32,000 nt of DNA from an uncultured Actinomycetota bacterium (GTDB lineage: Bacteria; Actinomycetota; Actinomycetes; Mycobacteriales; Jatrophihabitantaceae), in contig CAVVPY010000001.1 of assembly GCA_963750295.1 (NCBI GenBank), forward strand, positions 1,542,782 to 1,574,781, read 5' to 3'. The notes under the pieces were generated by a model that saw only the letters and a list, made by a program, of their open reading frames with translations, was not told the origin of the DNA and made no database searches. Positions 8,475-26,929 of the stretch are shown here, piece by piece (position 1 is the stretch's first letter; every line of letters begins with the position of its first letter). A program made the position numbers and the translations under genes.

Positions 8475-8945
8475 TCAGCCGACTTCGGCGAGTCGCTGTC
8501 GGTTGGTCGCGCGGCGGACGGCGCCGGCTGGTCGGCGGGTACCTGGTTTGTAGACCGAGAGGACCACGGACAGCAGTGCCTTCGCGAGCGCGGTCGTGGC
8601 GATCAGACCGACCGTCCACACCTGCACGGTGCCGAGGATCCGGCAGGCCAGATAGAGCCCGACGACGCTCGCCGTCGTCAGCAGGTTCAGCGCGAACTTC
8701 TTGACCACCCAGCCCGTTCTGAGCAGCTGCCACGGTGAGGCAAGCGCGCACAGGACGCCCGCCACGAACGCCGCGCACACGGCGACCGCCAGCACGCCGA
8801 GCAACCGAACGACCATGGGCGCTTGGTCCACCGGAATCGTCAGGCCGGCGGACGTGATCACTGCGAGCAACGCGACCTCGAGCCCGATGCCGGCGGTCGA
8901 GGTGGCCACATGCACGGCGAGCAGGGCGCGGCGCAGGCCGGTCAC
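8475..8945 (-). CDS. Hypothetical integral membrane protein (about 4 TM helices), last gene of the PKS operon
   Basis: 156-aa ORF with a GTG start at 8945, 4 nt after the upstream stop. It has four long hydrophobic segments (ALLAVHVATSTAGIGLEVALLAVI, VVRLLGVLAVAVCAAFVAGVLCALA, FALNLLTTASVVGLYLACRIL, VWTVGLIATTALAKALLSVVLSV). Confidence 0.6.
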   Translation of the reverse strand: MTGLRRALLAVHVATSTAGIGLEVALLAVITSAGLTIPVDQAPMVVRLLGVLAVAVCAAFVAGVLCALASPWQLLRTGWVVKKFALNLLTTASVVGLYLACRILGTVQVWTVGLIATTALAKALLSVVLSVYKPGTRRPAGAVRRATNRQRLAEVG

Positions 8946-9607: not shown

Positions 9608-10078
9608 TCAGAGAGCCGGAGTCAGCGTGGCTGCGATCACCGCGCCGACCGCTGCGATTGCAGCCCATGTACGGACCTCATGGGCAACGTGCCAGTGCAC
9701 CCGCTTGCGGTCCCACCCCTCGGCGGTGCGCCGCGGGCTCCAGCGCTCGATCTGTCGCCAGATGGGCCGGTTGAAGCCTTCGGAGGTGATGCCGACGACC
9801 ACCATGCTCACCGAGGCGAGCACGAACAACACCGTCGCGAGCGGCGTCGAAGCGATCGCTGCGGCCCAGAGGCCGACCCCCGCCGCGATGACGCCGTTCC
9901 ACACCGCGATGGGGTGGAACATGTGCATGTCGATCAATTGGCACGTCGTGACGTAGCGGTTGTAGGGCAGCGAGTCGAGCATCGGGATGATTGACGTCTT
10001 CATGATCCACAGCGTCCCGAGCTGCACGCCGGCAGCGGCGAGCAGGTAGACGGCGAGCACGGTCTGGGCGGTATTCAT
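9608..10078 (-). CDS. DUF1772 (anthrone-oxygenase-like) integral membrane protein
   Basis: 156-aa protein with ~4 TM helices. Its layout (N-terminal TM, PMLDSLPYNRY loop, HPIAVWNGVIAAGVGLWAA, C-terminal RKRVHWHVAHEVRTWAAIAAVGAVIA) is typical of DUF1772. A GGAGG RBS precedes the ATG at 10078. The family assignment is by pattern recognition only. Confidence 0.55.
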   Translation of the reverse strand: MNTAQTVLAVYLLAAAGVQLGTLWIMKTSIIPMLDSLPYNRYVTTCQLIDMHMFHPIAVWNGVIAAGVGLWAAAIASTPLATVLFVLASVSMVVVGITSEGFNRPIWRQIERWSPRRTAEGWDRKRVHWHVAHEVRTWAAIAAVGAVIAATLTPAL

Positions 10079-10109: not shown

Positions 10110-10448
10110 TCAGGCGGGCGTCAGCGCGACGTCGCCGCCGCGCGTCTCGGCGTGCACCTCGAAGCGCATGGACGTGGCCTCGGCCATGCACTCGCGCATC
10201 GGGCGCACAAGGGTGCGGTGCGACGGGTCGCTCTCCCACGCCTCGAAGTGGGCGAGCGAGGTCCACTCGCTGGTGATGAGCCACTGCTCCGGGTCCTGCG
10301 CCGACCGACAGACCTGATCGACCACATGCCCGTCGACGCCGTTGGCGACGACGTAGCGGATCTGCTGGTAGGCAGCCAGGAACTCGTCAGTACGTGCTGC
10401 CGGGACACGGATCAGGAAGACGATGCGGGCGCTCGCACGGTCGTTCAT
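10110..10448 (-). CDS. Antibiotic biosynthesis monooxygenase (ABM; TcmH/ActVA-Orf6-like anthrone/quinone-forming oxygenase)
   Basis: 112-aa protein (RIVFLIRVPAARTDEFLAAYQQI...WLITSEWTSLAHFEAWESDPSHR), the ABM ferredoxin-fold pattern. Its ATG at 10448 overlaps the CLF stop (ATGA). The 303-aa extension to 11021 was rejected. Confidence 0.8.
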   Translation of the reverse strand: MNDRASARIVFLIRVPAARTDEFLAAYQQIRYVVANGVDGHVVDQVCRSAQDPEQWLITSEWTSLAHFEAWESDPSHRTLVRPMRECMAEATSMRFEVHAETRGGDVALTPA

Positions 10449-11695
10449 CGGTGGGCTCCTGCCGGGTCGGCTTCGCGCGGGGCGGTCAGCACGAGCGCGG
10501 AGTTGAACCCGTCGAACCCGCGGGCCCCGACCAGTGCGGTCGTGACGGGCGCGTCGACGGTGGCCGGGACGAAGGCGAGATCGCAATCCGGCGCCGGGTC
10601 GGCCGGGACGTAGGACCCGAGCATCGCGCCGCGATCGATGCTGAGCACGGCCTCCGCGGCGTCCAGCGCGCTGCCGCCCTGGTACAGCCTGCCGATCAGC
10701 GGCTTGTGCGTGCTCACGGGCACGTCGCGTCCTCTGAAGACCGAGTGCAGCGCAGCGGCCTCTGCCTGGTCGGCGTCGGGGACTCCGGCCGCATCGGGCA
10801 CCACGACGTCGACGTCGTCGGGGGTGACGCCGGCACGTTCGAGCGCCTGCTCCATGGCGCGGGCATAGTGGTTCGGCCAGGGGGCGCCTCGGGTGCCGGT
10901 GTGCGTCCCGTCGTGGGTCGCCGCGGCGCCCGCGAGCTCGGCGTAGATGTGCGCGCCGCGCGCGATCGCGTGGTCGCGGTCCTCGACCACGAAGACCGCG
11001 CCCCCCTCGCCCGGCACCCACCCGGTGGCGTTGCGATCGAAGGGCCGGTAGACGTCGGTGGCGCCGCGACTCGTCGCCAGCCGGCCGTGCGCGAGCTGGC
11101 AGGTCAGGGCGTAGGGCGACAGCGGGGCCTCGACGGCGCCCGCAAGCACGATCGGCGTTCCCCGGCGGACCGTCCGGGCGGCATGGGCCAGGCTGTCGAG
11201 CCCGCCGGCCGCCTCGGACACCACGACGGAACTCGGCCCCTTGGCCTGGTATGCGATCGAGACCTGCCCGACCGTGGCCGCGTAGAACCAGGCGATCGAT
11301 TGGTAGGCGCCGACGGTGCGTGCCGGGTCGGCCCAGAGTCGTTGCAGTTCGACCTGACCGAACTCGTTGCCTGCACTGGAGCTGGCCATGACGACGGCAA
11401 CGTCCGTCGGCGGGTGCTCGGACAGGTCCAGTTCGGCGTCACGCAGCGCCTGCCCGGTTGCCGACAGCCCGAGCCACGTCCAGCGGTCGGTCTGCACCGC
11501 GATCCGGCTTTCCACGTGCGACCGGACGTCCTCGCGGACTTCGCCGGCGACCTGGAGCGGATACTGGTCGGCGTCGAACCGGGTGATCCGGTCGATGCAG
11601 GATCGGCCCGCGGACACGGTGTCCCAGTGCTCGGCCGCGCCCGCACCGCTCGGGGCCAGGATCCCCACGCCGGTGATGACGGCTCCGGCGCTCAT
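10445..11695 (-). CDS. Type II PKS chain-length factor (KS-beta/CLF), with Ala at the conserved Gln position
   Basis: [24 protein letters not shown]...[40 protein letters not shown]...[15 protein letters not shown]...[11 protein letters not shown]. It has no active-site Cys, and its ATG at 11695 overlaps the KS-alpha stop (ATGA). Confidence 0.9.
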
Positions 11696-12966
11696 CGCGA
11701 GCCTCCCAGCGCGGTGAAGATCATCGCGGACTGGAAGCCACCGAAGCCGCTGCCGACGGACAGCGCTGCCCGTACCGACCACTCGCGTGCAGTGACCGGG
11801 ACGTAGTCGAGGTCGCACTCGGGATCGGCCACGGCGAGATTCGCCGTGGGCGGCACCACGCCGTACTCGACGGCGAGAGCGCAGGCGGCCATCTCGATGG
11901 AGCCGATCGCGCCCAGCGAGTGCCCGATCATCGACTTGATCGAACTCATCGGCGTCCGGTAGGCGTGTTCGCCCAGCGAGCGCTTGACCGCCGCCGTCTC
12001 GTGCCGATCGTTCTGCTTGGTTCCTGATCCGTGCGCGCTGATGTAGGAGATCTCGTCGGGATTGAGCCGCGCCTGGTGCAGCGCCTCGTCGATCGCCAGC
12101 GACATCTCCACGCCATCCGGACGAAGCCCCGTCATGTGGTAGGCGTTGCCACGACCGGCGTAACCGGCCACCTCGCAGTAGATGTGCGCGCCGCGTGCCC
12201 TCGCGTGCTCGTACTCCTCGAGAACCAGGACGGCGGCCCCCTCGCCCATCACGAAGCCGGACCGCCTCCGGTCGAACGGCTTCGAGGCGTGCTCGGGGTC
12301 GTCGTTGTCGGGCGTGGTCGCCCGGATCGCGTCGAACGAGGCGGCCGAGATCGGCGAGATCGGCGAATCGGACGCGCCGGCGATCACCACGTCCGCCTCA
12401 CCGTCCTGCACGAGGTGATGGGCGTAGCCGATCGCGTCGATGCCAGACGTGCATCCGTTCGAGACGACCTGAACCGGGCCGTGGGCGCCGAACCTGACCG
12501 CGACGTCGGCGGCCAGACTCGACGGCACGAGCGCCTGGTACAGGAAGCGCCCGGCGTAGTCGGCGTCCACCAGCCAGTCCCGGCCGCGGTCGCTGACGAC
12601 GACGAACTCGTCCTCGAGGCGCGTGGTGCCGCCGACGGCCGTGCCCAGGACGACCCCGGTGGACAGCGCGGTCGCCCCGTCGAACTCGAGCCCACTGTCC
12701 TCGACCGCTTCGAGCGCACCGGCCAGCGCGAACTGGATGTAGCGGTCCGAGCGGGCGACCTCGCGCGGTGACAAGCCGGCCTCGGCCGGGTCGAAGTCGC
12801 ACTCGGCACCGACCTGCGAGCGGAACGGCGCCGGGTCGAACAGCGAGATCCGCCTGGTTGCGGTACGTCCCTCGGTGATCGTCGACCAGAAGGCCTTGCG
12901 ATTCACCCCGCCCGGCGCGACGACGCCGACGCCGGTGACGACCGTGCGCCGGTTGTCGACCGTCAC
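11692..12966 (-). CDS. Type II PKS ketosynthase alpha (KS-alpha)
   Basis: [14 protein letters not shown]. The active site is [15 protein letters not shown], and the catalytic His motifs are [16 protein letters not shown] and [14 protein letters not shown]. The GTG start at 12966 overlaps the cupin stop (GTGA). Confidence 0.95.
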
Positions 12967-13385
12967 GGCGTCACCGCCTGGGCCATGAGCGCCGCGGCCT
13001 CCTCCTTGGTCTCGGTGTCGACGTGACCCAGGTCGGGGCGGGGTGCGAGCGGGCCGCAGTGGAACACGGCGCGCGCAGTCGTTGCGTGCGGGTTGCGCAG
13101 CCGGTGCCGGACGAATTTCGGCACCATCACGGCCTCGTCGACCTCGAGTCGGCGCGACTCGCCGTCGAGGTCGATATCGAGGGTGCCCTCGATGACGCAG
13201 AGGAACTCCTCCGAGTACGGGTGGTAGTGCTCGGCCACCGCCTCGCCGGGCTCGACGATGACGATGCCCATGAACCCGGACGTGCTGGCGACAGTTGCCG
13301 GGCCGAGCAGGACGCGGACGTCTCCGCCGCGGCGCGTGTTGTGCGGCGCGGACGAGAGCCCGACGGTCGGGACGGTGGTCGACAT
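12963..13385 (-). CDS. Cupin-fold polyketide accessory protein (TcmJ / WhiE-ORFII-like)
   Basis: 140-aa protein with a cupin core ([40 protein letters not shown]...[13 protein letters not shown]). It lies immediately 5' of KS-alpha, as in the tcm and whiE clusters. A GAGAGG RBS precedes the start. Confidence 0.8.
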
Positions 13386-13400
13386 GATGGTGTGCCTCTC

Positions 13401-14118
<718 letters not shown>

Positions 14119-14122
<4 letters not shown>

Positions 14123-15483
14123 GCTGCTTCCTCCTTTGGGTTGCACATCCGGTCGACGAGACCGGTGCTGTGGGTTGCCGTGCTGAACTGTGGATGCGCG
14201 AGAACGTCACGCAGGAACGGGATCGTGGTGCGGACGCCCGGACCGTCGACGGCGAACTCGGCCAGCGCGCGGTCCATCCGGTCGATGGCCTGGACCCGGT
14301 CCGGGGCCCAGGTCACCACCTTCGCGATGAGCGAGTCGTAATGGGGACCGAGGACGTAGCCGGGGTAGGCATGCGTGTCCACGCGGATGAAGGGACCGCC
14401 CGGTACGTCGAAGCGCTCGAGCCGGCCGGGCGTGGGCAGGAAACCGCGCGCGGGATCCTCGCCGTTGACGCGGCATTCGACGGCGTGCCCGGCGAAGGTG
14501 ACATCGGCCTGGCGGTAGGGCAACGGCCGTCCGGCAGCGGCGAGGATCTGCTCCCGGACGAGGTCGAAGCCGGTGATCATCTCGGTGACCGTGTGCTCGA
14601 CCTGGATGCGGGTGTTGATCTCCATGAAGTAGTAGCGGCCCTGGCCGTCGAGCAGGAACTCGAACGTCCCGACGCCGGTGTAACCGACGGCGAGGGCCGC
14701 CCGCAGCGCAGCCTCGTTGATTTCGCGCGAGGTCTCGGGCGACAGGTCCGGAGCGGGCGCCTCCTCGACGAGCTTCTGGTGGCGTCGCTGGACCGAGCAG
14801 TCGCGCGTACCCAGCCAGACGCCGTTCCCGTGCTCGTCGCACAGAACCTGCACCTCGATGTGCCGCGCGTCGGCCAGGTAGCGCTCGGCGTACACGCGCT
14901 CGTCGCCGAACACCGAGGCCGCCGTACTGCGGGCCCGAGTGAATGCCTCGGTCAGGTTCTCGCGACGCTCGACGACCGCCATCCCCTTGCCGCCGCCGCC
15001 GGCCACCGCCTTGATGATGACGGGGAACCCGATCTCGTCGACGACCTCGTGCAATTGCGCCGCACCGGTCAGCGGCTCGACCACGCCGGGCAGAAGGGGA
15101 AGCCCCTCGGCCGACATGATCTGCCGCGCGGCGGACTTGTCGCCGAGGCGTCCGATCAGGCCAGGCTCGGGGCCGATGAACGTCAGCCCGTACTCGGCGC
15201 ACATCTCAGCGAAGTCAGGATCCTCGGAGAGGAACCCATAGCCCGGATGGACGCCGTCTGCGCCGGTCTGCAACGCGGCCTCGACGACCGCGGCGTGATT
15301 CTGGTAGCTGCGACGGCTGGGGGCCGGCCCGATGTGCACGACGTGGTCGAAGTGCCGCGCCTGCCTCGGGTCGAGGTCGGGCGTGGACGCGACCCCGACG
15401 GTCTCGATGCCCATCTCGGCGCACGTCCGGGCCACCCGCAGCGCGATCTCGCCGCGGTTGGCGATGAGGATCCGCTCGAACAC
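14119..15483 (-). CDS. accC: Biotin carboxylase subunit of acetyl-CoA carboxylase (stand-alone AccC type)
   Basis: (M)FERILIANRGEIALRVARTC...GYGFLSE...PVIIKAVAGGGGKGMAVV...YFMEINTRIQVEHTVTE. It is 454 aa with no fused BCCP. The GTG start lies 3 nt after the BCCP stop. Confidence 0.9.
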
Positions 15484-15486
15484 GGC

Positions 15487-16056
15487 TCAGCCCTCCTCGA
15501 CCGAATCGGGACGGATGCGCACCAGCGGCTGGTCGAACTCGACCGGGGCACCATCGCCGACGAGGACGTCGAGGACCTCACCGGAGATCTCGGCCTCGAT
15601 GTTGTTCAGCAGTTTCATCGCCTCGACGATCCCGATGGTCTGGCCGGCCGCGACGCACTGGCCGACCTCGACGAACGGCGGCTCACCGGGGCTCGGGGCG
15701 CGGTAGAACGTCCCGACCATCGGGGACCTGACGGCGACACCATCGACCGACACGTCCTCGGGGACGACCGTCGGCTGAGCAGCGACAACGTGCGGGGACA
15801 CGGCTTCCACCGGGACCGCGGGCGCCACCGATGGGACCGGCACGGCGACAGCCGCCGTGGTGCCGAAACCGCCGACGGGAGCAGGCGCAGGATGTTCCCA
15901 CTCGACCTCGACGACGACGTCGCCCGACGACAGCCGCACACGACGCAGCGGTCCGTCCACGTCCTGGGCGAGAGCACGCAACTCCTCGCCCAGGCGCAGC
16001 AGCGCGTCCTGCTCGCCGGCGTTGCTCGCTCGGTTCTCCGCCGTCGCGGTCATCAC
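15487..16056 (-). CDS. accB: Biotin carboxyl carrier protein (AccB type)
   Basis: The C-terminal biotinyl domain is [51 protein letters not shown] (biotin-Lys in EAMKL). An Ala/Pro/Val-rich linker precedes it. The start is GTG 16056 (GTGA overlap) or ATG 16053. Confidence 0.9.
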
Positions 16057-17795
16057 GCCACCGCTTCCTCGGGATCGGTCGAGAGTGCAGCCGCGCCGTC
16101 GTGGACCACGGTCACGGCGATGTCACCGGTATCCCGGAACCGGGCGCGGCGCACGCGCACCAGCGTGGCGCTGTCCTGCGCGCACAGGACGTCGATGGCT
16201 CGCGACACCGCGGCGTGCAGACTCGACACCATCGCAGTCGGATCGAGCGCGCTCCCCCGACCGTCGACGTCCGGCTCGGGCAGCACCCCGTCGATGACGC
16301 CCAGCTCGAGCAGTTCGCGGGCGCTGATGTGCAACGCCCGAGCGGCCTCCGGCGCCTTCGCCGCGTCGGACCACAGGATGGCCGAACAACCCTCCGGACT
16401 GATCACCGAGTAGACGGAGTGCTCGAACATGAACACGCGGTCGGCGACAGCGAGCGCCAGCGCACCACCGCTCCCGCCCTCGCCGGTCACGACGGTGACA
16501 ACCGGAACCCGCAGCTCGAACATCGCGGCGATGCTGTCGGCGATGGCGAAGGACTGTCCGCGTTCCTCGGCGACCCGCCCGGGGTACGCGCCCGGGGTGT
16601 CGACCAGGGTGACGATCGGCAGGCCCAACTGGTCGGCCAGGCGCATCAGCCGCAGCGCCTTGCGGTACCCGTCGGCGTCGGGCATCCCGAACTGGCGCGC
16701 GACGAGCTCGCGCGTCGAATGACCCTTCTGATGGCCGATGACCATGACCGCGCGGCCGTCCAGTTGGGCAAAGCCGCCGACAATGGCGGGGCAGTCGGAG
16801 TTGCTGCGGTCACCATGGAGTTCGACGAAGCCGGTGAAGACGTGCGAGAGGTAGTCCAGAGTGGTCGGCCGGTCGGTGTTTCTCGCCTGGGCGACTACGG
16901 CCCACGGGTCGACGACGCGGACGTGCTCAGGGGCGGTGATCACACCGTCGCCCGTGTCGACACGTCTCGGACCGCGAGCCGGGCGCGCGGTCACCGTCTG
17001 CAGCAGCCGGGCGAGCCACGGGCGCAGTTCGTGCCGGTGCACAACCTGATCGACGTGGCCGTGCTCGAGCAGGAACGGGGCGGTCTGGAAGTCCTCGGGC
17101 AGGTGCTCGCGGATCGTCTGGGCAATCACGCGACGCCCCGCGAAGCCCATCCGTGCGTCCTTCTCGGCGACGACGACGTCGCAACTGGTGGCGAAGGATG
17201 CAGCGACCCCGCCGAAGGTCGGATCGGCGACCACGCTGACGGTGAGCAGCCCGGCCTCGCGCAGCGCGACGAGCGCTTGGCTGACCTTCGCCATCTGCAG
17301 CAGCGCAATCGTGCCCTCCTGCATGCGCGCCCCGCCTGACGACGTGACCAGCACCAGTTGGCGATGCTCGTCGACGCACAACTCGGCGACCCGGGTGATC
17401 GCCTCGCCGACGGCCGCGCCGAGACTGCCGCCCATGAAGTCGAACTCCATCACCGCGATGCCGATCGCCACGCCCCCGAGGTCGGCGCGGCCGGCCAGCA
17501 CCGCGTCGTCGAGGCCGGTGCTGCGACGCGCGGATTCGAGCCGGTCCCGGTACGGCTTCGAATCGACGAAGCCCAGCACGTCGGTGGCGCGCACTCGCTC
17601 GGCCAGGGGTTCGAAAGTCCCGGAGTCAACCAGCGTCTCGACGCGGCGCGCCGCGCTGAGGCGGCAGTGCCGGTCGCACTCGGGGCAGACCGCGAGGTTG
17701 CGGCGCCACCGCTTGCCGTAGTGCAGCGCGCCGCAGCCAGCGCAGCGGATCCACGCCTCGGTCGAGGATTCGGGTCGAGCTTGCAGCGCGGTCAT
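16053..17795 (-). CDS. Acetyl-CoA carboxylase carboxyltransferase, fused beta-alpha (AccD-AccA) polypeptide
   Basis: The N-terminal AccD half has a Zn ribbon ([27 protein letters not shown]) and [11 protein letters not shown]. The C-terminal AccA half has [27 protein letters not shown] and [13 protein letters not shown]. It is 580 aa from the ATG at 17795, which overlaps the TcmI-like stop (ATGA). The 733-aa extension to 18254 was rejected. Confidence 0.9.
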
Positions 17796-18124
17796 ACCAG
17801 CTGCCCTCCGGGGGTCCAGTCGTAGAAGCAGCGAGCCTGGGCGTCCGCCGGGGACTGCCAGTTCTCCAGGTAGGGGCTGATGTGCGGGCGCAGCGCCTCG
17901 CTCACCCGTGCGAACTCGGCGTGGGTGCGGACGGACTCGACGGCCTGGGCGCCGGGACGTTCGGTCTCGAGCAGGTGCACGTACAGGTCGGACAGGCGGT
18001 AGAGCGAGCGACGTCGCACCCCGGCGATGTTTGGCAGTTCGGTCGAGTCGGAATCGCCGAAGATGCGGGCGACCTCGGCCTCCGAGTCCGGCTTGATGCG
18101 GGCGATGATCAGCGATCGGTTCAT
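17792..18124 (-). CDS. TcmI-family polyketide cyclase (WhiE-ORFVII-like), first gene of the PKS operon
   Basis: MNRSLIIARIKPDSEAEVARIFGDSDSTELPNIAGVRRRSLYRLSDLYVHLLE...CFYDWTP is collinear with TcmI (recalled: ...AEHDTTELPLEIGVRRRVLFRFHDLYMHLIE...VFYSWT). ATG at 18124. Confidence 0.9.
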   Translation of the reverse strand: MNRSLIIARIKPDSEAEVARIFGDSDSTELPNIAGVRRRSLYRLSDLYVHLLETERPGAQAVESVRTHAEFARVSEALRPHISPYLENWQSPADAQARCFYDWTPGGQLV

Positions 18125-18248
18125 CTGGGCCTCTCGTGACTCTGCGGTGGCGCCGGGGGCGGCTGCGCTCCGAATCGGGTGCTGAACCAATCTGCGAGGG
18201 GAGGTGTCCCGACGTCGTGATGTACCGATCACCGCAGCGCTGGGAAGT

Positions 18249-18405: not shown

Positions 18406-19077
18406 CTAGCTGCCGAGGCCCTGACGGCGGGCCAGGACCGCGGCCTCGGTGCGGTCGACCAGTTGCAGCTTGGTGAAGATGCGCGAGAGGTAGTTGCGTA
18501 CCGTCTTGATGGAGAGTCCGAGCTCCTTGGCGATCGCCGCATTGCCGCGACCGTCGGCCACAAGTTCGAGCACCGCCCGCTCGCGCTCGGTGAGTTCGGG
18601 GAACGGCTTGGCCGTGTTCGGTGGGGCGACCAGGTGTTCGATGACCCAGTTCCCAGCCTGCGAGTCGAACTGCAGCCCGCCGTACTGGACGGTCTCGATC
18701 GCTCGGCAGATGTCCTCGATCGAGGAGCCCTTGAGCAGGTATCCCCTGGCACCAGCGCGCACCGCAGACATGAATACGTCGCGATCGTCGCTCATGGTCA
18801 CGACGATCACCGAAATCGACGGGAAGCGGGAATGGATGATCCGCGTGGCCTCGATGCCGGTCATGTCGGGCAGGTGAACGTCCATGAGCACGAGGTCCGG
18901 ACGGGTACGGTCGCACTCCCGAACCGCCTCGGCGCCGGACCCGGCTTCGGCGACGACGCGCAACTGCGCCTGGGCATCGAGCAGCGACCGCAGTCCTGAC
19001 CGGAAGACGGGGTGGTCGTCGGCGACAAGGATCTCGATCACCTCGGAGTCCCGCTCGGCTCCTACCGTTCTGGTCAT
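18406..19077 (-). CDS. Two-component response regulator, NarL/LuxR family
   Basis: The receiver domain is ILVADDHPVFRSGLRSLL...DLVLMDVHLPDMTGIEA...VIVVTMSDD. The C-terminal LuxR HTH is LTERERAVLELVADGRGNAAIAKELGLSIKTVRNYLSRIFTKLQL. The ATG at 19077 overlaps the kinase stop (ATGA). Confidence 0.9.
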   Translation of the reverse strand: MTRTVGAERDSEVIEILVADDHPVFRSGLRSLLDAQAQLRVVAEAGSGAEAVRECDRTRPDLVLMDVHLPDMTGIEATRIIHSRFPSISVIVVTMSDDRDVFMSAVRAGARGYLLKGSSIEDICRAIETVQYGGLQFDSQAGNWVIEHLVAPPNTAKPFPELTERERAVLELVADGRGNAAIAKELGLSIKTVRNYLSRIFTKLQLVDRTEAAVLARRQGLGS

Positions 19078-19799
19078 CGCTGATCCACCGAGTCCGGTCT
19101 GAGCGGAAGCCTTGCTGCGACGCGGAACCCGCCGCCCGCCACGGGAAGTGCGGTGCAGGTGCCGCCGAGTTCACGCGCCCGGCCGAACATGTTCTCGAGC
19201 CCTTGCCCCGTCGCCGGGACCGTCGCGGGAGTGGGTGCATCGTCGACGACGCTCAGTTGGATCGAGGTGTCATCGACGAGACACGCTACCCACGCGCGGT
19301 GGGCGTCGGCGTGCCGGAACACATTGGTCAACGCCTCACGGATGATCCAGAATGACGCGGCGGCAACGCGGGATGGCAGGCGCTCCAAGTCTCCGCGAAC
19401 GCGCAGCGCGATCAGGGGTGATCCGCCGAGCGCACGGTTCATCCGCTCGATCATCTCGGTGAGCACCGTACGAAGCGGAAGGTGGCCGGCGTCTGCGCGC
19501 GGACGTGTCTGCGGGCTCGTCGAGGACAGCTCGCGAGCGCGCCCGACGATCGCCTGGGCCTCGTGCACGGCTAGCTCGACATGGTCGCGCGCACGGACCG
19601 AATCGCGGTCGAGGACGCTGAGTGCAGCTTGCAACTGGGTGAGAACGGCGGCCGCACAAGACCCGATCTGATCGTGGACGTCGCGGCGCAGGGTGCGCAG
19701 TTCGTCGTCGTGGCTGCAGCCGCTGCCATCGGTCCAGGACGAGACCGCCTGGACGGACGTCGCAGCGTCAGGTCGTGATCCCGCCGACCGAGCGGTCAT
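19074..19799 (-). CDS. Histidine kinase, HisKA_3 + HATPase_c only (no TM or sensor domain evident)
   Basis: The H-box is LRRDVHDQIGSCAAAVLTQL. The ATPase part is SFWIIREALTNVFRHADA...GQGLENMFGRARELGGTCT. The start is set at ATG 19799 because codons between 19800 and 20012 have visibly poor GC3 (CTT, CCA, CGA, GGA, TTA, AGT, GAA...). The longest ORF reaches GTG 20012. Confidence 0.75.
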   Translation of the reverse strand: MTARSAGSRPDAATSVQAVSSWTDGSGCSHDDELRTLRRDVHDQIGSCAAAVLTQLQAALSVLDRDSVRARDHVELAVHEAQAIVGRARELSSTSPQTRPRADAGHLPLRTVLTEMIERMNRALGGSPLIALRVRGDLERLPSRVAAASFWIIREALTNVFRHADAHRAWVACLVDDTSIQLSVVDDAPTPATVPATGQGLENMFGRARELGGTCTALPVAGGGFRVAARLPLRPDSVDQR

Positions 19800-20298
19800 G
19801 GGCACGGCGTGGCTCCCACTGGCATTCGGTGACTGCACGTGTGCTTCTCCTCGACGACTGTGGTCGCGGCGGCCGGGTGGCCTGAGACTCAGACCCGCGA
19901 TCGCGGCGTTTCGTAACGGCAGCACCACCCATCCGATCGAGCGGGCCACATCCAACGGTCCTCGATGCGAGACCTCCGGCTCGCACATCAGCCTCGATGG
20001 GGCAAGCGGCACTTTATACCGTTTCGCCCGTTTAGAGGGTAGATATGTTTTCGCGCTCCGACAACCCCACTCAGCTCAGTGCAAGGTGACGGCCGCGAGC
20101 GCGAGGTGTGCGAGCGGTCGGTGCACACGCGTGGACCCGCCGGCGGGCGTCCCACGTCGCCGGCCCACGACCGGGCATCGGCCCGGGACGGCTGACGAAC
20201 GAACCCGTGCGGGTGGGAAGCCGTCCCGATCCGCCCGCTTCGGTCACCGGCCCCATCCGCCCATCGAGCCTCGATCCCCCTTCTGGGACACGCGTCCG

Positions 20299-20339: not shown

Positions 20340-20438
20340 TCACCGGGCTTGTCGCCGCCGAAAACCCGTCGTTAAGTTCCCAACGACAACAGCACAAACC
20401 GGATGAATCGGCCCGAATGGGCCGGACGGAGGACGGCG

Positions 20439-21440
20439 ATGACCCAGACTGCGACCATCCCGGCGCCCGCGGATGACTGCTCGGCAGCCGACTACTCGCG
20501 CTGTTACGCGGTCATGACGACCATCCGCGCCTTCGAGAACGCGGTGCACGAGGCGTTCGCGACTGGCAGCGTCCCCGGTGCGGTTCATCTGTACGCGGGC
20601 CAGGAGGCTGTCGCGGCGGGCGTCTGCGACGCGCTGTCACCGGCTGACTACGTGTCCAGCACGCACCGCGGCCACGGGCACGCGATCGCCAAAGGCTGCG
20701 ACCTCGACGCGATGATGGCCGAGATCTTCGGGCGCGATGCCGGCCTGTGCCGCGGCAAGGGCGGTTCGATGCACATCGCGGACATGAGCAAGGGCATGCT
20801 CGGCGCCAACGGCGTGGCAGCCGCCGGAGCCCCGATCGCCTGCGGCGGCGCGCTGTCGGCCAAGCAGCGCGGAAGCGGCCAGGTCGCGGTCACCTTCGTC
20901 GGCGACGGCGGGGTCAACCAGGGCGCCTTCGCGGAGAGTCTCGTGCTCGCCGGCCTCTGGCAGCTCCCCGTCGTGTTCGTCGTCGAGGACAACGGCTACG
21001 CGCAGTCGACGGCGTCGGCCCACCACCTCGCGGGACGTGGCGTGTGCGCCCGAGCCGAGGCCCTCGGCATACCGGCCGAGGTCGTCGACGGCTACGACGT
21101 CGTCGCGGTCCGGGACGCTGCCGGGCGCGCGGTCGCACGTGCTCGGTCCGGCGGCGGGCCCACGCTGCTGGAATGCCGCGCCTTCCGCTTCTTCGGACAC
21201 ATGGAGGGCTGGGACGGCCAGGAGTACCGCGGCGACGGCGAGGTCGATCGGCTGCGCAACGAGCACGATCCACTACAGCTGTTCCGCGCGCGTGCCGAAC
21301 GGGAGGGCCTCGCGGACCACGGCGAACTGGATCGCGCCGACCGTCGCGCGGCCGCCGCGGTCGCGGCCGCGGTGCAGTTCGCCCGCACCGCGCCCGATCC
21401 AGACCCGTCCGAACTCGTCACCGGCGTCTACGCCGACTGA
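20439..21440 (+). CDS. TPP-dependent 2-oxoacid/acetoin dehydrogenase E1 component, alpha subunit
   Basis: FENAVHEAF..G.VPGAVHLYAGQEAVAAGV...STHRGHGHAIAKG...GKGGSMHI, with the TPP motif GDGGVNQGAFAESLVLAGLWQLPVVFVVEDNGYA. The ATG at 20439 is preceded by GGAGGA (20428-20433); ATG 20403 is the alternative. Confidence 0.85.
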   Translation: MTQTATIPAPADDCSAADYSRCYAVMTTIRAFENAVHEAFATGSVPGAVHLYAGQEAVAAGVCDALSPADYVSSTHRGHGHAIAKGCDLDAMMAEIFGRDAGLCRGKGGSMHIADMSKGMLGANGVAAAGAPIACGGALSAKQRGSGQVAVTFVGDGGVNQGAFAESLVLAGLWQLPVVFVVEDNGYAQSTASAHHLAGRGVCARAEALGIPAEVVDGYDVVAVRDAAGRAVARARSGGGPTLLECRAFRFFGHMEGWDGQEYRGDGEVDRLRNEHDPLQLFRARAEREGLADHGELDRADRRAAAAVAAAVQFARTAPDPDPSELVTGVYAD

Positions 21441-21451
21441 TCCGCGCGAGC

Positions 21452-21481
21452 CCCCACCCCACCCCATCCGATCCGATCCGA
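21452..21481. repeat. Back-to-back pentanucleotide microrepeats (CCCCA)x3 (TCCGA)x3 in the E1-alpha/E1-beta spacer
   Basis: ccccaccccaccccatccgatccgatccga, read directly at 21452-21481 and ending 8 nt before the E1-beta GTG at 21489. Confidence 0.9.
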
Positions 21482-21488
21482 AGGTTAG

Positions 21489-22571
21489 GTGACCGACGTG
21501 GCCGACTTGACTCCGGCAACCGAGCCGCTCGCGGCAGCCGCGGTGCCCACCGCACGCGAGGCACCACGGCTGATCAGTTATCTCGATGCCATCACCGAGG
21601 CGATGGCCGGCGAACTGGCCCGCGATCCGTCGGTCGTCCTGCTCGGCGAGGACAGCATCGGCGGGACCGGCTGCGACGGCCGGCTCGGCAATGCATGGGG
21701 TCCGACGAAAGGGCTTTTCGAGCAGTTTCCCGGCCGGGTGCTGGACACGCCCATCACCGAGTCCGCATTCCTGGGCGCGGCGGTCGGCGCGGCGGCGACG
21801 GGCCTTCGCCCTGTCGTCGACCTGCTGTTCGTCGACTTCGTCGGCGTCTGTTTCGACCAGCTGCTCAATCAGGCGTCGAAGTTCCGGTACATGAGCGGTG
21901 GCGTCGCGCAGGTCCCGCTCGTGGTCCGAGCGATGTGGGGCGCCGGCATGCGCCGCGGCGCGCAGCACGCCCAGGCCCTGTACCCGCTCTTCGCGCAGAT
22001 CCCTGGCCTGAAGGTGGCCGTGCCCTCGACCGCCGCGGATGCCAAGGGCCTCATGGCCACGGCGATCCGCGACGACGACCCGGTCGTGTTCCTCGAGCAC
22101 AAGATGCTCTATTTCGTCCCGGGGCCGGTCCCGGCCGGCGAGCACCTCGTCCCGTTCGGACGCGCCGACGTCAAGCGCACCGGCCGTGACTGCACGGTCG
22201 TCGCACTCGGCAAGTCCGTCCATGACGCTCTGGCCGCAGCCGAGCCGCTCGCCGCCGAGGGCATCGAGATCGAGGTCGTCGACCCGCGCACCGTCGTCCC
22301 GCTCGACACCGACGCGATCCGCACCAGCGTCGAGCGCACCGGTCGGCTCGTGGTGGTCGACGAGTCTTACCGGCGTTGCGGATTCGGGGCCGACGTCGCC
22401 GCAGTCGCCGCCGAGGAAGCCTTCCACGCGCTGACCGCGCCGGTGCGCCTCGTGACGCCGCCGCACACGCCGACCCCGTTCAGCCCGATTCTCGAGGACG
22501 CGTTCCTGCCGTCTGCAGCGGACATCGCCGCAGCAGTGCGCACGACGGTCGGCGCCGGCGTCGCGGCCTGA
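21489..22571 (+). CDS. TPP-dependent 2-oxoacid/acetoin dehydrogenase E1 component, beta subunit
   Basis: ISYLDAITEAMAGELARDPSVVLLGED...RVLDTPITESAFLGAAVGAAATGLRPVV...AQHAQALYPLFAQIPGLKVAVPSTAADAKGLM...VEIEVVDPRTVVPLD. GTG start at 21489. Confidence 0.85.
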   Translation: MTDVADLTPATEPLAAAAVPTAREAPRLISYLDAITEAMAGELARDPSVVLLGEDSIGGTGCDGRLGNAWGPTKGLFEQFPGRVLDTPITESAFLGAAVGAAATGLRPVVDLLFVDFVGVCFDQLLNQASKFRYMSGGVAQVPLVVRAMWGAGMRRGAQHAQALYPLFAQIPGLKVAVPSTAADAKGLMATAIRDDDPVVFLEHKMLYFVPGPVPAGEHLVPFGRADVKRTGRDCTVVALGKSVHDALAAAEPLAAEGIEIEVVDPRTVVPLDTDAIRTSVERTGRLVVVDESYRRCGFGADVAAVAAEEAFHALTAPVRLVTPPHTPTPFSPILEDAFLPSAADIAAAVRTTVGAGVAA

Positions 22572-25500: not shown

Positions 25501-26238
25501 TCAGCGCACGTGCCGAACGTCGCCGGCGCTGACCTCGCGGGGGCCGTCCCCGGTCTCGATCACCAACATCCCGGATCCAGAAATCGCCGACGCCTTCCCG
25601 TGCAACTCACCGTCGGCCGACTCGACGACAATCACGCGGCCGATCGTGGCGCACCGTGACCGGTAGGTCTCGAGCAACCCCGAACCTGCGGCGTCCCCGC
25701 CGGCATCGATCAGGGCGTCGTACTGGCGTGCCAGCGCCGCCAGCACATCGGAAAGTAACCCGTCGGCATCCGTATCGCCGGCTCCGGCGATTGCCAGCGA
25801 TGTCGAATCGCGCACCGGCAGTTGCTGCGCCGTCTGGGTGACGTTGACGCCGACGCCGACGACCACCGCGTCGCCGCGCGCCTCGGTAAGGACGCCCGCG
25901 ATCTTGGCGTCGCCGACGAGCACGTCGTTGGGCCATTTCACGGCGACCATTGCCACGCGCGCGTCGAGCGCCTCGGTCACGGCCAGGCCCGCCAGCGGCG
26001 TGAGCCAGGCCCACGCCGAGGTGGGAAGCGGCGGCCGCAACCGGATGGAGAACAGCAGCGACGAACGGGCGGGAGCCTCCCAGCTGCGGTCGAAGCGTCC
26101 GCGCCCGGCCGTCTGGTGAGCGGCGACGAGGACCTCGCCGGCAGAGCCGCCGACGTCGGCGAGCAGATCGGAGTTGGTCGAGGCGGTCTCGTCGACCCGC
26201 CGCAGCGGGCCGAGGCTGGGTGGCAGGACCACGGTCAT
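25501..26238 (-). CDS. birA: Biotin--[acetyl-CoA-carboxylase] ligase (group I BirA, no N-terminal HTH)
   Basis: DETASTNSDLL...VLVAAHQTAGRGRFDRSWEAP (GRGRxxRxW)...AVKWPNDVLVGDAKIAGVLTE (KWPND)...VVGVGVNV. 245 aa. Confidence 0.85.
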   Translation of the reverse strand: MTVVLPPSLGPLRRVDETASTNSDLLADVGGSAGEVLVAAHQTAGRGRFDRSWEAPARSSLLFSIRLRPPLPTSAWAWLTPLAGLAVTEALDARVAMVAVKWPNDVLVGDAKIAGVLTEARGDAVVVGVGVNVTQTAQQLPVRDSTSLAIAGAGDTDADGLLSDVLAALARQYDALIDAGGDAAGSGLLETYRSRCATIGRVIVVESADGELHGKASAISGSGMLVIETGDGPREVSAGDVRHVR

Positions 26239-26248
26239 GGTTCTCAGG

Positions 26249-26929
26249 CTAACGAGCGCGGACGCGTGGCGGCACCCATCGGGCGGCGTGGGCGACGGAC
26301 AGGACGAGCCCGTCGCAGACCTGCCAGCGGCCCGGGACGCCGTCGCGTAGCCGTCGCGGCGGCGTCGTGCCGGCGGCGAAGTCGACGAGGAACGTCTCGC
26401 CAGGGCCGAGGTCCACTCGCATGTCGGCGATCCCCAGCACCCGGCCGGTCACCGGATGCCACACCTTGAACGCTGCTTCGCGACAGCCCCACAACACGGT
26501 CGCTGCCAGGCCCGGGTCGACGCCCCCACGGACGAGGGCCGCTCGAGCGTTCCCGCGCTCGTCGGCGTCCAGGCGCGCGTCGACCGCCGCGGGCAAGGCG
26601 ATCGCCGGCGTCGCGTCAATCCCGATCGTGCCGACCTCCGCGCGCCGGCCGACAGCTGCGGCCACGAACCCCTCGCAGTGGGTGATGCTGCCCGTCGTGC
26701 CTGGCGGCCACTGCGGGCTGCGGTCTGCGGCGCGGCCGACCGTCCGCTGCGCGACACCGAGCCGTGCGAGGGCCTGCGCGGCGCACGCACGTCCTGCCTC
26801 GAACTCTGCGCGGCGCTTCGACGTCGCCCGCTCCAGTCCGTTCGGACCAGCGTCGGCGACCGGGAGGTCGAGGTGGGCGCGACGCTCGACGGCGACCACA
26901 CCGGGTGGCAACAGGCCGTCGAGCAGCAC
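26249..26929 (-). CDS. 4'-phosphopantetheinyl transferase (Sfp/EntD type)
   Basis: KRRAEFEAGRACAAQALARLG, PQWPPGTTGSITHCEGFVAAAV, IGIDATP and VLWGCREAAFKV correspond to the EntD/Sfp-type motifs. The GTG start at 26929 is uncertain. Confidence 0.8.
   Translation of the reverse strand: MLLDGLLPPGVVAVERRAHLDLPVADAGPNGLERATSKRRAEFEAGRACAAQALARLGVAQRTVGRAADRSPQWPPGTTGSITHCEGFVAAAVGRRAEVGTIGIDATPAIALPAAVDARLDADERGNARAALVRGGVDPGLAATVLWGCREAAFKVWHPVTGRVLGIADMRVDLGPGETFLVDFAAGTTPPRRLRDGVPGRWQVCDGLVLSVAHAARWVPPRVRAR

Follow-up and report, generated by a model that had tools for sequence, protein, structure and literature searches.

Genes for a predicted heteromeric acetyl-CoA carboxylase lie within a type II polyketide synthase operon of an uncultured actinomycete, in a layout shared by other actinomycete genomes

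Actinomycetes are known to depend on acyl-CoA carboxylases of the alpha/beta type. In the JadJ/JadN and AccA2/PccB types, an alpha subunit in which biotin carboxylase (BC) and biotin carboxyl carrier protein (BCCP) are fused is paired with a 12S-type beta subunit, and JadJ is cluster-situated. We have found genes for a carboxylase of another kind in a 32,000-nucleotide stretch of DNA (hereafter, the window) from an uncultured Actinomycetota bacterium of the Jatrophihabitantaceae (GenBank assembly GCA_963750295.1, contig CAVVPY010000001.1, positions 1,542,782 to 1,574,781 of the forward strand). They encode a fused AccD-AccA carboxyltransferase (CT), a stand-alone BCCP and a stand-alone BC, and they lie among the genes of a type II polyketide synthase (PKS).

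The closest described systems are carboxylase genes of characterized biosynthetic clusters. In the lanthomicin cluster, LtmH1 (a carboxyl transferase of 571 aa), LtmH2 (BCCP) and LtmH3 (BC) are homologous to XanB3, XanB2 and XanB1 of the xantholipin cluster; ltmF1 to ltmH3 are seemingly cotranscribed, the enzymes are proposed to make malonyl-CoA, and the lanthomicins themselves are pentangular polyphenols (PMC9127795). The window resembles the XanB1-B3 and LtmH1-H3 sets in having three genes (for a CT of ~571 aa, a BCCP of ~174 aa and a BC of ~469 aa in those sets) clustered with genes for a ketosynthase (KS-alpha), a chain-length factor (CLF, or KS-beta), an acyl carrier protein (ACP) and cyclases. 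Unlike the window trio, however, that of the ltm table comes after the genes for the PKS, the cyclases and the monooxygenases and is not placed between a TcmI cyclase and the ACP. In the persiamycin cluster of Streptomonospora sp. PA3, perHIJ are described as forming malonyl-CoA (PMC7296137). As in the window, a CT (507 aa), a BC (465 aa) and a BCCP (164 aa) are encoded there among TcmI-, TcmN- and TcmJ-like cyclases, an ACP and a WhiE-like KS/CLF, but the order of the subunits differs, the CT stands apart from BC and BCCP in the published table, and the persiamycin cluster is a glycosylated one. The formicamycin genes forHI encode carboxylase subunits described as indispensable for initiation, and activation by the two-component system ForGF has been proposed (PMC8062789). 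The window likewise has a histidine kinase-response regulator (HK-RR) pair directly upstream, whereas ForH and ForI are encoded on a separate transcript that is divergent from the regulator genes and outside the minimal-PKS operon, and two genes are named rather than three.

Outside these clusters, the CT of Streptomyces sp. R1128 (Q9F6D6) matches the window CT with 57% identity across 96% of the latter and has the same fused architecture, Zn ribbon included; we take it to belong to the zhu type II PKS cluster, published in 2000. All four catalytic modules of E. coli AccA, AccD, AccB and AccC, with their motifs, are present in the window trio. Unlike the E. coli proteins, the AccD and AccA modules form one polypeptide, D then A, and the genes are grouped in a secondary-metabolite operon. 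With the JadJ/JadN and AccA2/PccB types the window trio shares biotin-dependent acyl-CoA carboxylation, but its CT is not of the 12S type, and its BC and BCCP are separate open reading frames (ORFs) that do not form the fused alpha subunit of the AccA2/PccB type.

Gene positions were taken from an ORF listing together with third-position GC, the G+C content of the window being ~70%. Domains were identified with Pfam, curated cut-offs were those of NCBIfam, solved structures were compared through the PDB, and gene junctions were taken from the sequence. The carboxylase genes extend over 17795..14119 of the minus strand, flanked by the genes for a TcmI-like cyclase and an ACP, and the genes from this cyclase onward are as follows, in the order of transcription.

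17792..18127, minus strand: TcmI-like polyketide cyclase, first gene of the operon (Pfam Cyclase_polyket, 2e-38)
16053..17795, minus strand: fused AccD-AccA carboxyltransferase (CT), 580 aa (Pfam, NCBIfam accD and accA, PDB matches)
15487..16056, minus strand: stand-alone BCCP, 189 aa (Pfam Biotin_lipoyl, 8.9e-19)
14119..15483, minus strand: stand-alone BC of the AccC type, 454 aa (Pfam Biotin_carb_N, CPSase_L_D2 and Biotin_carb_C, 1e-35 to 1e-69)
13862..14122, minus strand: ACP, 86 aa (Pfam PP-binding, 1.4e-09; phosphopantetheine site DSL at residues 44-46)
13401..13862, minus strand: SRPBCC aromatase/cyclase of the TcmN/WhiE-VI type (Pfam Polyketide_cyc, Polyketide_cyc2)
12963..13385, minus strand: cupin of the TcmJ/WhiE-II type, cyclase-associated (Pfam Cupin_2)
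11692..12966, minus strand: KS-alpha, with the active-site Cys in NGCTSG (Pfam; motif)
10445..11695, minus strand: CLF (Pfam; KS-alpha/CLF alignment)
10110..10448, minus strand: ABM-type monooxygenase-like protein, 112 aa (PF03992 ABM on an identical Logan-contig protein and on orthologues)

The CT is one unbroken ORF in which Pfam recognizes Zn_ribbon_ACC (residues 15-40, 2.1e-07), Carboxyl_trans (5.5e-38) and ACCA (residues 294-557, 1.1e-104). Its AccD-like half takes up about residues 10-271 (16983-17768) and includes a Zn ribbon formed by C18, C21, C37 and C40 (17676-17753); a variable linker of about residues 272-293 leads to the AccA-like half (residues 294-559; 16119-16916), which is without the first ~50 residues of a free-standing AccA. 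In an alignment of 18 fused sequences the four ribbon Cys and the motif GEGGSGGAL are invariant. The protein passes the curated cut-offs for both accD (TIGR00515; 322.6 against 317.45) and accA (TIGR00513; 327.2 against 319.3). Against the AccA and AccD structures of E. coli and S. aureus it scores 225-267 bits (264.6 for E. coli AccA), versus only 60-96 bits against 12S transferases of the PccB/AccD5/AccD6 type, with PccB, AccD5 and AccD6 themselves at 60-71 bits. Homologues of the CT number in the thousands, and the best 120 are all fused, with lengths of 518-641 aa and identities of 55-75%; they include proteins from dozens of Micromonospora species and from Amycolatopsis, Actinokineospora, Kibdelosporangium, Lentzea, Actinoplanes, Plantactinospora and Streptomyces sp. 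R1128. This protein search returned no 100% self-match for the window CT, the best being 75%, while a search with the CLF found its own protein at 100%; the CT gene of the window may be called differently in the protein collection searched, or be missing from it.

The BCCP passes TIGR00531 (135.5, cut-off 115.2). Its biotinyl-lysine, Lys148, lies in EAMKL, an AMKL motif (codon 15613-15615), and its VEAMKL aligns with VEAMKM of E. coli BCCP in a match of ~90 bits. The BC matches E. coli BC (1bnc) with 445 bits and the best BC in the PDB with 493 bits, and the motifs GGGGKGM, QKLVEEAP, RIQVEH and ECRVN are conserved in it. By these motifs and matches its identity as a stand-alone BC is beyond doubt, although the status of an accC equivalog is not reached. 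The three proteins together are well supported as a complete heteromeric acetyl-CoA carboxylase (ACC) of the kind serving bacterial fatty acid synthesis, predicted to be distinct from the actinobacterial alpha/beta type.

The junctions tie these genes to those on either side. The TcmI and CT genes meet at GGT-ATGA-CC, an ATGA stop/start overlap; CT and BCCP meet at GCGTGATGA, which can be read as a GTGA overlap or as a TGATG overlap of 1 nt; BCCP and BC are separated by TGA, a 3-nt spacer and GTG; and BC and ACP share the ATGA of GC-ATGA-GC, with a ribosome-binding site, AAAGGAGGA, ahead. Further along, ACP and aromatase/cyclase overlap at TGATG, cupin and KS-alpha at GTGA, and the CLF gene has ATGA overlaps at both ends, with KS-alpha and with the ABM gene. 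From the TcmI to the ABM gene there are only overlaps of four bases or one base or the 3-nt spacer, the sole larger gap being 17 nt before the cupin. We infer a single operon because stop and start codons overlap or nearly abut, which supports the view that the carboxylase genes are embedded in the PKS operon and are probably translationally coupled with it. A scan of the window for promoters and terminators was uninformative on this GC-rich DNA.

A preliminary description of this DNA had placed a fused AccD-AccA with its Zn ribbon, a stand-alone BCCP and a BC between a TcmI-like cyclase and an ACP, joined to both neighbours by stop/start overlaps. The Pfam assignments and the ATGA at the TcmI/CT and BC/ACP junctions confirm this, and the sole amendments are shorter starts for two genes. 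The TcmI ORF was listed as 18232..17792, but its likelier start is the ATG at 18127, giving 111 aa, because its relatives have 110 aa; such 110-aa orthologues occupy the equivalent position in related loci. For the ACP, the ATG at 14122 (86 aa) is the probable start rather than 14146. The same description had called the carboxylase E. coli-type and unlike the actinobacterial alpha/beta type, as the bit scores of the CT against the two groups of structures bear out, and had proposed a dedicated malonyl-CoA supply, which would be the natural reading of the coupling to the PKS operon and of the proposals made for published clusters.

A scan of genome contigs gave a phylogenetically scattered sample in which the frequencies of arrangements are illustrative and are not a census. 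Six independent loci (L001, L006, L081-L083, L084, L085 and L086) share the order TcmI, CT, BCCP, BC, ACP, aromatase/cyclase, cupin, KS-alpha and CLF, usually followed by ABM, and the overlaps are kept in the called genes. They come from three families, the Micromonosporaceae, Pseudonocardiaceae and Geodermatophilaceae, and from metagenome contigs. The metagenome contigs L081-L083 are the closest relative, with the whole cluster syntenic, including genes for a biotin ligase, a phosphopantetheinyl transferase (PPTase) and a pair of E1 proteins described below. The other five loci are those of Amycolatopsis nigrescens (L084), Micromonospora auratinigra (L085) and Actinokineospora enzanensis (L086), and of Micromonospora craterilacus and Trujillonella endophytica. 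In the Amycolatopsis locus the TcmI gene is uncalled, and tblastn places a TcmI-like stretch just upstream of the CT gene. We regard the interleaved layout as long established and conserved within one widespread family of type II PKS clusters in actinomycetes, and not as a recent splice.

The trio of CT, BCCP and BC genes is found in other settings as well. In L002, L003, L004 and L007 it adjoins KS/CLF in differing orders; in Embleya sp. AB8 (L010, 8573-13548) it follows a type III, chalcone-synthase-like PKS; and in Actinokineospora iranica (L013, 8273-13582) it follows AfsA-like and HAD genes. Since it occurs in other KS/CLF orders and beside a type III PKS, the distribution suggests a portable cassette for the supply of malonyl-CoA that serves several types of cluster.

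Both Micromonospora loci encode an ACP that forms the N-terminal part of a fusion with the SRPBCC aromatase/cyclase (L085, 13809-14519, 236 aa; L001, ~12670-13330), and the BC of L085 ends in an Ala/Pro-rich tail of ~70 residues. The 522-aa BC of Micromonospora auratinigra was considered as a BC-ACP fusion and rejected as such, its extension being this tail and its ACP being fused to the aromatase/cyclase.

With regard to origin, the carboxylase genes have a GC content of 0.69-0.71, and 0.81-0.89 at third codon positions, matching the flanking genes. A rough neighbour-joining tree of 46 transferases, too weak to resolve deep origin, groups all 16 actinomycete transferases together (bootstrap 67/100), including those with no PKS nearby. 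Within it the window CT falls in a subclade with Amycolatopsis, Actinokineospora and Micromonospora (74/100), and the nearest outgroups of the actinomycete proteins are from Chloroflexota and from deep Actinobacteriota (Gaiellaceae). These data argue for what may be an old transferase lineage travelling with biosynthetic clusters. Recent horizontal import from outside the Actinobacteria, for which the preliminary description had suggested looking by phylogeny, has left no sign in this tree or in base composition.

Two features had been thought less usual there, and neither is. Besides the six loci of identical order, the persiamycin and lanthomicin clusters have ACC genes listed among those for the minimal PKS and the cyclases. 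The single-polypeptide AccD-AccA is shared by the best 120 homologues as a whole, by LtmH1 (571 aa) and by PerH (507 aa), and gene neighbourhoods in many Clostridia and Coriobacteriia show fused accDA within operons of the form fabF-accB-accC-accDA; because of these operons, the single-polypeptide transferase can be regarded as a common housekeeping form. The arrangement is an ordinary one that recurs in many actinomycete genomes and resembles published layouts. To that extent it is largely standard elsewhere, although the exact gene order of the window is documented in genomes and not in a characterized cluster.

The CLF of the window has Ala (in SEAAGG) at the position aligned with the active-site Cys of KS-alpha. 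Canonical CLFs have Gln there, to which the decarboxylation of malonyl-ACP in chain initiation is attributed. All the relatives with an interleaved carboxylase (L081, L084, L085, L086, L001 and L006) are without this Gln, as is L003, and it is kept in L002, L004 and L007, in which the trio is placed elsewhere. Among the 120 closest CLF homologues it occurs in none of the 108 sequences matched by motif, which have Ser, Ala, Gly or Thr instead. The Gln-less CLFs probably reflect the shared ancestry of one large clade.

Four further genes of the window enter into the role proposed for the carboxylase.

20012..19074, minus strand: histidine kinase (weak NCBIfam histidine-kinase matches)
19077..18406, minus strand: LuxR-type response regulator (Pfam Response_reg, GerE)
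25501..26238, minus strand: biotin protein ligase, 245 aa (Pfam BPL_LplA_LipB and BPL_C; TIGR00121 154.8 against a cut-off of 83.1; GRGR motif)
26249..26929, minus strand: PPTase of the Sfp/PptT type (Pfam 4PPT_N; NCBIfam PptT and Npt matches under their cut-offs)

The HK-RR pair lies directly upstream of the carboxylase/PKS operon and is conserved there in L081, L084 and L086. The genes for the biotin ligase, which has no Pfam match to a DNA-binding domain, and for the PPTase adjoin, and both are conserved in L081 (1724-2461 and 982-1713). The ligase may be the activator of the E. coli-type BCCP and the PPTase that of the ACP.

We infer the steps of the following mechanism from the chemistry of the families. 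With ATP and bicarbonate, BC would carboxylate the biotin carried by Lys148 of BCCP, and the fused CT would transfer the carboxyl group to acetyl-CoA, yielding malonyl-CoA. The malonyl group would be placed on the adjacent ACP by a host transacylase, probably FabD, or by self-loading of the ACP; host FabD is proposed because no acyltransferase (FabD-like) domain or malonyl-CoA:ACP transacylase was seen among the ORFs scanned with Pfam. The malonyl units would then be condensed by KS-alpha/CLF. The carboxylase, cyclase, ACP and ketosynthase genes would be transcribed and translated as one coupled operon, so that the supply of extender would rise only together with production of the PKS. Holo-BCCP and holo-ACP would probably be provided by the biotin ligase and the PPTase encoded in the cluster, and, as ForGF suggests by analogy, the HK-RR pair lying upstream may regulate the operon.

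We consider it very probable that the trio encodes an acetyl-CoA carboxylase dedicated to this cluster, which is expressed together with the PKS from one translationally coupled operon and provides malonyl-CoA for type II polyketide synthesis; its substrate, its contribution to flux and its co-regulation with the PKS are presumed from gene identity and context. Given the coupling, stoichiometric co-production of carboxylase and PKS is plausible. Some points weigh against a dedicated supply. A separate alpha/beta carboxylase in the host is presumed from what is generally known of Actinobacteria, and the BC, with scores of 581.7 and 589.6, stays slightly below the 626.5 and 597 set as curated cut-offs for accC. 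In addition, inactivation of chrK, a carboxylase gene of the chrexanthomycin cluster, raised yield (PMC13227249). Cluster carboxylases are thus not always yield-limiting.

The genes might instead encode the housekeeping acetyl-CoA carboxylase for fatty-acid synthesis and simply be neighbours of a PKS cluster. Fused accDA with accB and accC is indeed the housekeeping form in the fab operons of many Clostridia, Coriobacteriia and others, and Chloroflexota and Gaiellaceae, the outgroups closest in the tree, may employ their fused transferases in this way. The window genes, however, lie inside an operon with a polyketide cyclase on one side and the PKS ACP on the other, joined by overlapping stop and start codons, and no fab genes are nearby among the Pfam-scanned ORFs of the window. 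KS-alpha/CLF genes also lie within 10 kb in 10 of the 14 actinomycete loci examined (a type III PKS in one of the 14), Streptomyces is represented by only a few strains among the matches listed, so that the trio looks accessory, and the alpha/beta carboxylases on which actinomycetes rely speak against a housekeeping role too, which we regard as extremely unlikely. A different substrate, such as propionyl- or butyryl-CoA, could be carboxylated to give a substituted extender or starter unit; the accC score of the BC and the missing priming Gln of the CLF, which suggests unusual initiation, fit this idea. It is nevertheless very unlikely, since both halves of the CT are above the equivalog cut-offs for accA and accD, homologous trios in characterized clusters are annotated and interpreted as acetyl-CoA carboxylases, and extension by type II PKSs is known to use malonyl units only.

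It has also to be asked whether carboxylase and PKS form a physical complex in which malonyl is channelled or passed directly to the ACP. Such a complex would explain why BC and then ACP follow each other, with an overlap of 4 nt or 1 nt or a 1-nt spacer, across families, and it would agree with the lack of a malonyl-CoA:ACP transacylase among the scanned ORFs. Yet there is no fusion of an ACC subunit with an ACP, the Micromonospora ACP being joined to an aromatase/cyclase instead; adjacency of BC and ACP is not required, because the trio is placed differently relative to the ACP in other clusters; and translational coupling accounts for co-production with no need for protein contact. We hold channelling to be highly improbable. 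A wider proposal would have the PKS depend on a physically associated carboxylase both for delivery of its extender and for an unconventional route of initiation, because the coupled order of ACC and then ACP, the Gln-less CLF and the lack of an acyltransferase in the scanned ORFs occur together; the cluster would then need a ligase of its own, that of the host not serving a BCCP of foreign type. We give this proposal a small chance. The housekeeping role, the other substrate and channelling are all weaker explanations than a dedicated malonyl-CoA supply.

The rest of the window is taken up by a type II PKS cluster. A pair of pyruvate dehydrogenase (PDH)-like E1 alpha and beta genes lies at 20403-22571 on the plus strand, followed by genes for a SnoaL-like protein and an FAD oxidoreductase up to 24524; no E2 or E3 partner for the pair was found among the scanned ORFs. 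This block is conserved in L081, L084 and L086, where it diverges from the side holding the HK-RR genes and the operon. After the ABM gene come genes for two 156-aa proteins with hydrophobic N-termini (9608-10078 and 8475-8945, both minus strand), neither of which has a Pfam match at E<=0.001. They are positionally conserved, both being present in L081, and orf156 is shared by L084 and L086 as well. In the persiamycin table a DUF1772 protein of comparable size stands beside the KS genes (PMC7296137). The window further holds genes for a luciferase-like monooxygenase, a SchA/CurD-domain protein, an amidohydrolase, a second cupin and a zinc alcohol dehydrogenase.

The locus adds a further member to a widespread family of type II PKS clusters that would carry their own supply of malonyl-CoA. 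The finding overturns no expectation, and its practical value is modest, although compact CT-BCCP-BC cassettes would be of use as parts where polyketide titres are to be raised in heterologous hosts. The clade of Gln-less CLFs, the biotin ligase encoded in the cluster and the PDH-like E1 genes for which no E2 was found could tell more about how these polyketide chains are started and fed, and the observations on the CLF, on the biotin ligase and PPTase and on the E1 pair may outweigh the carboxylase itself in interest.

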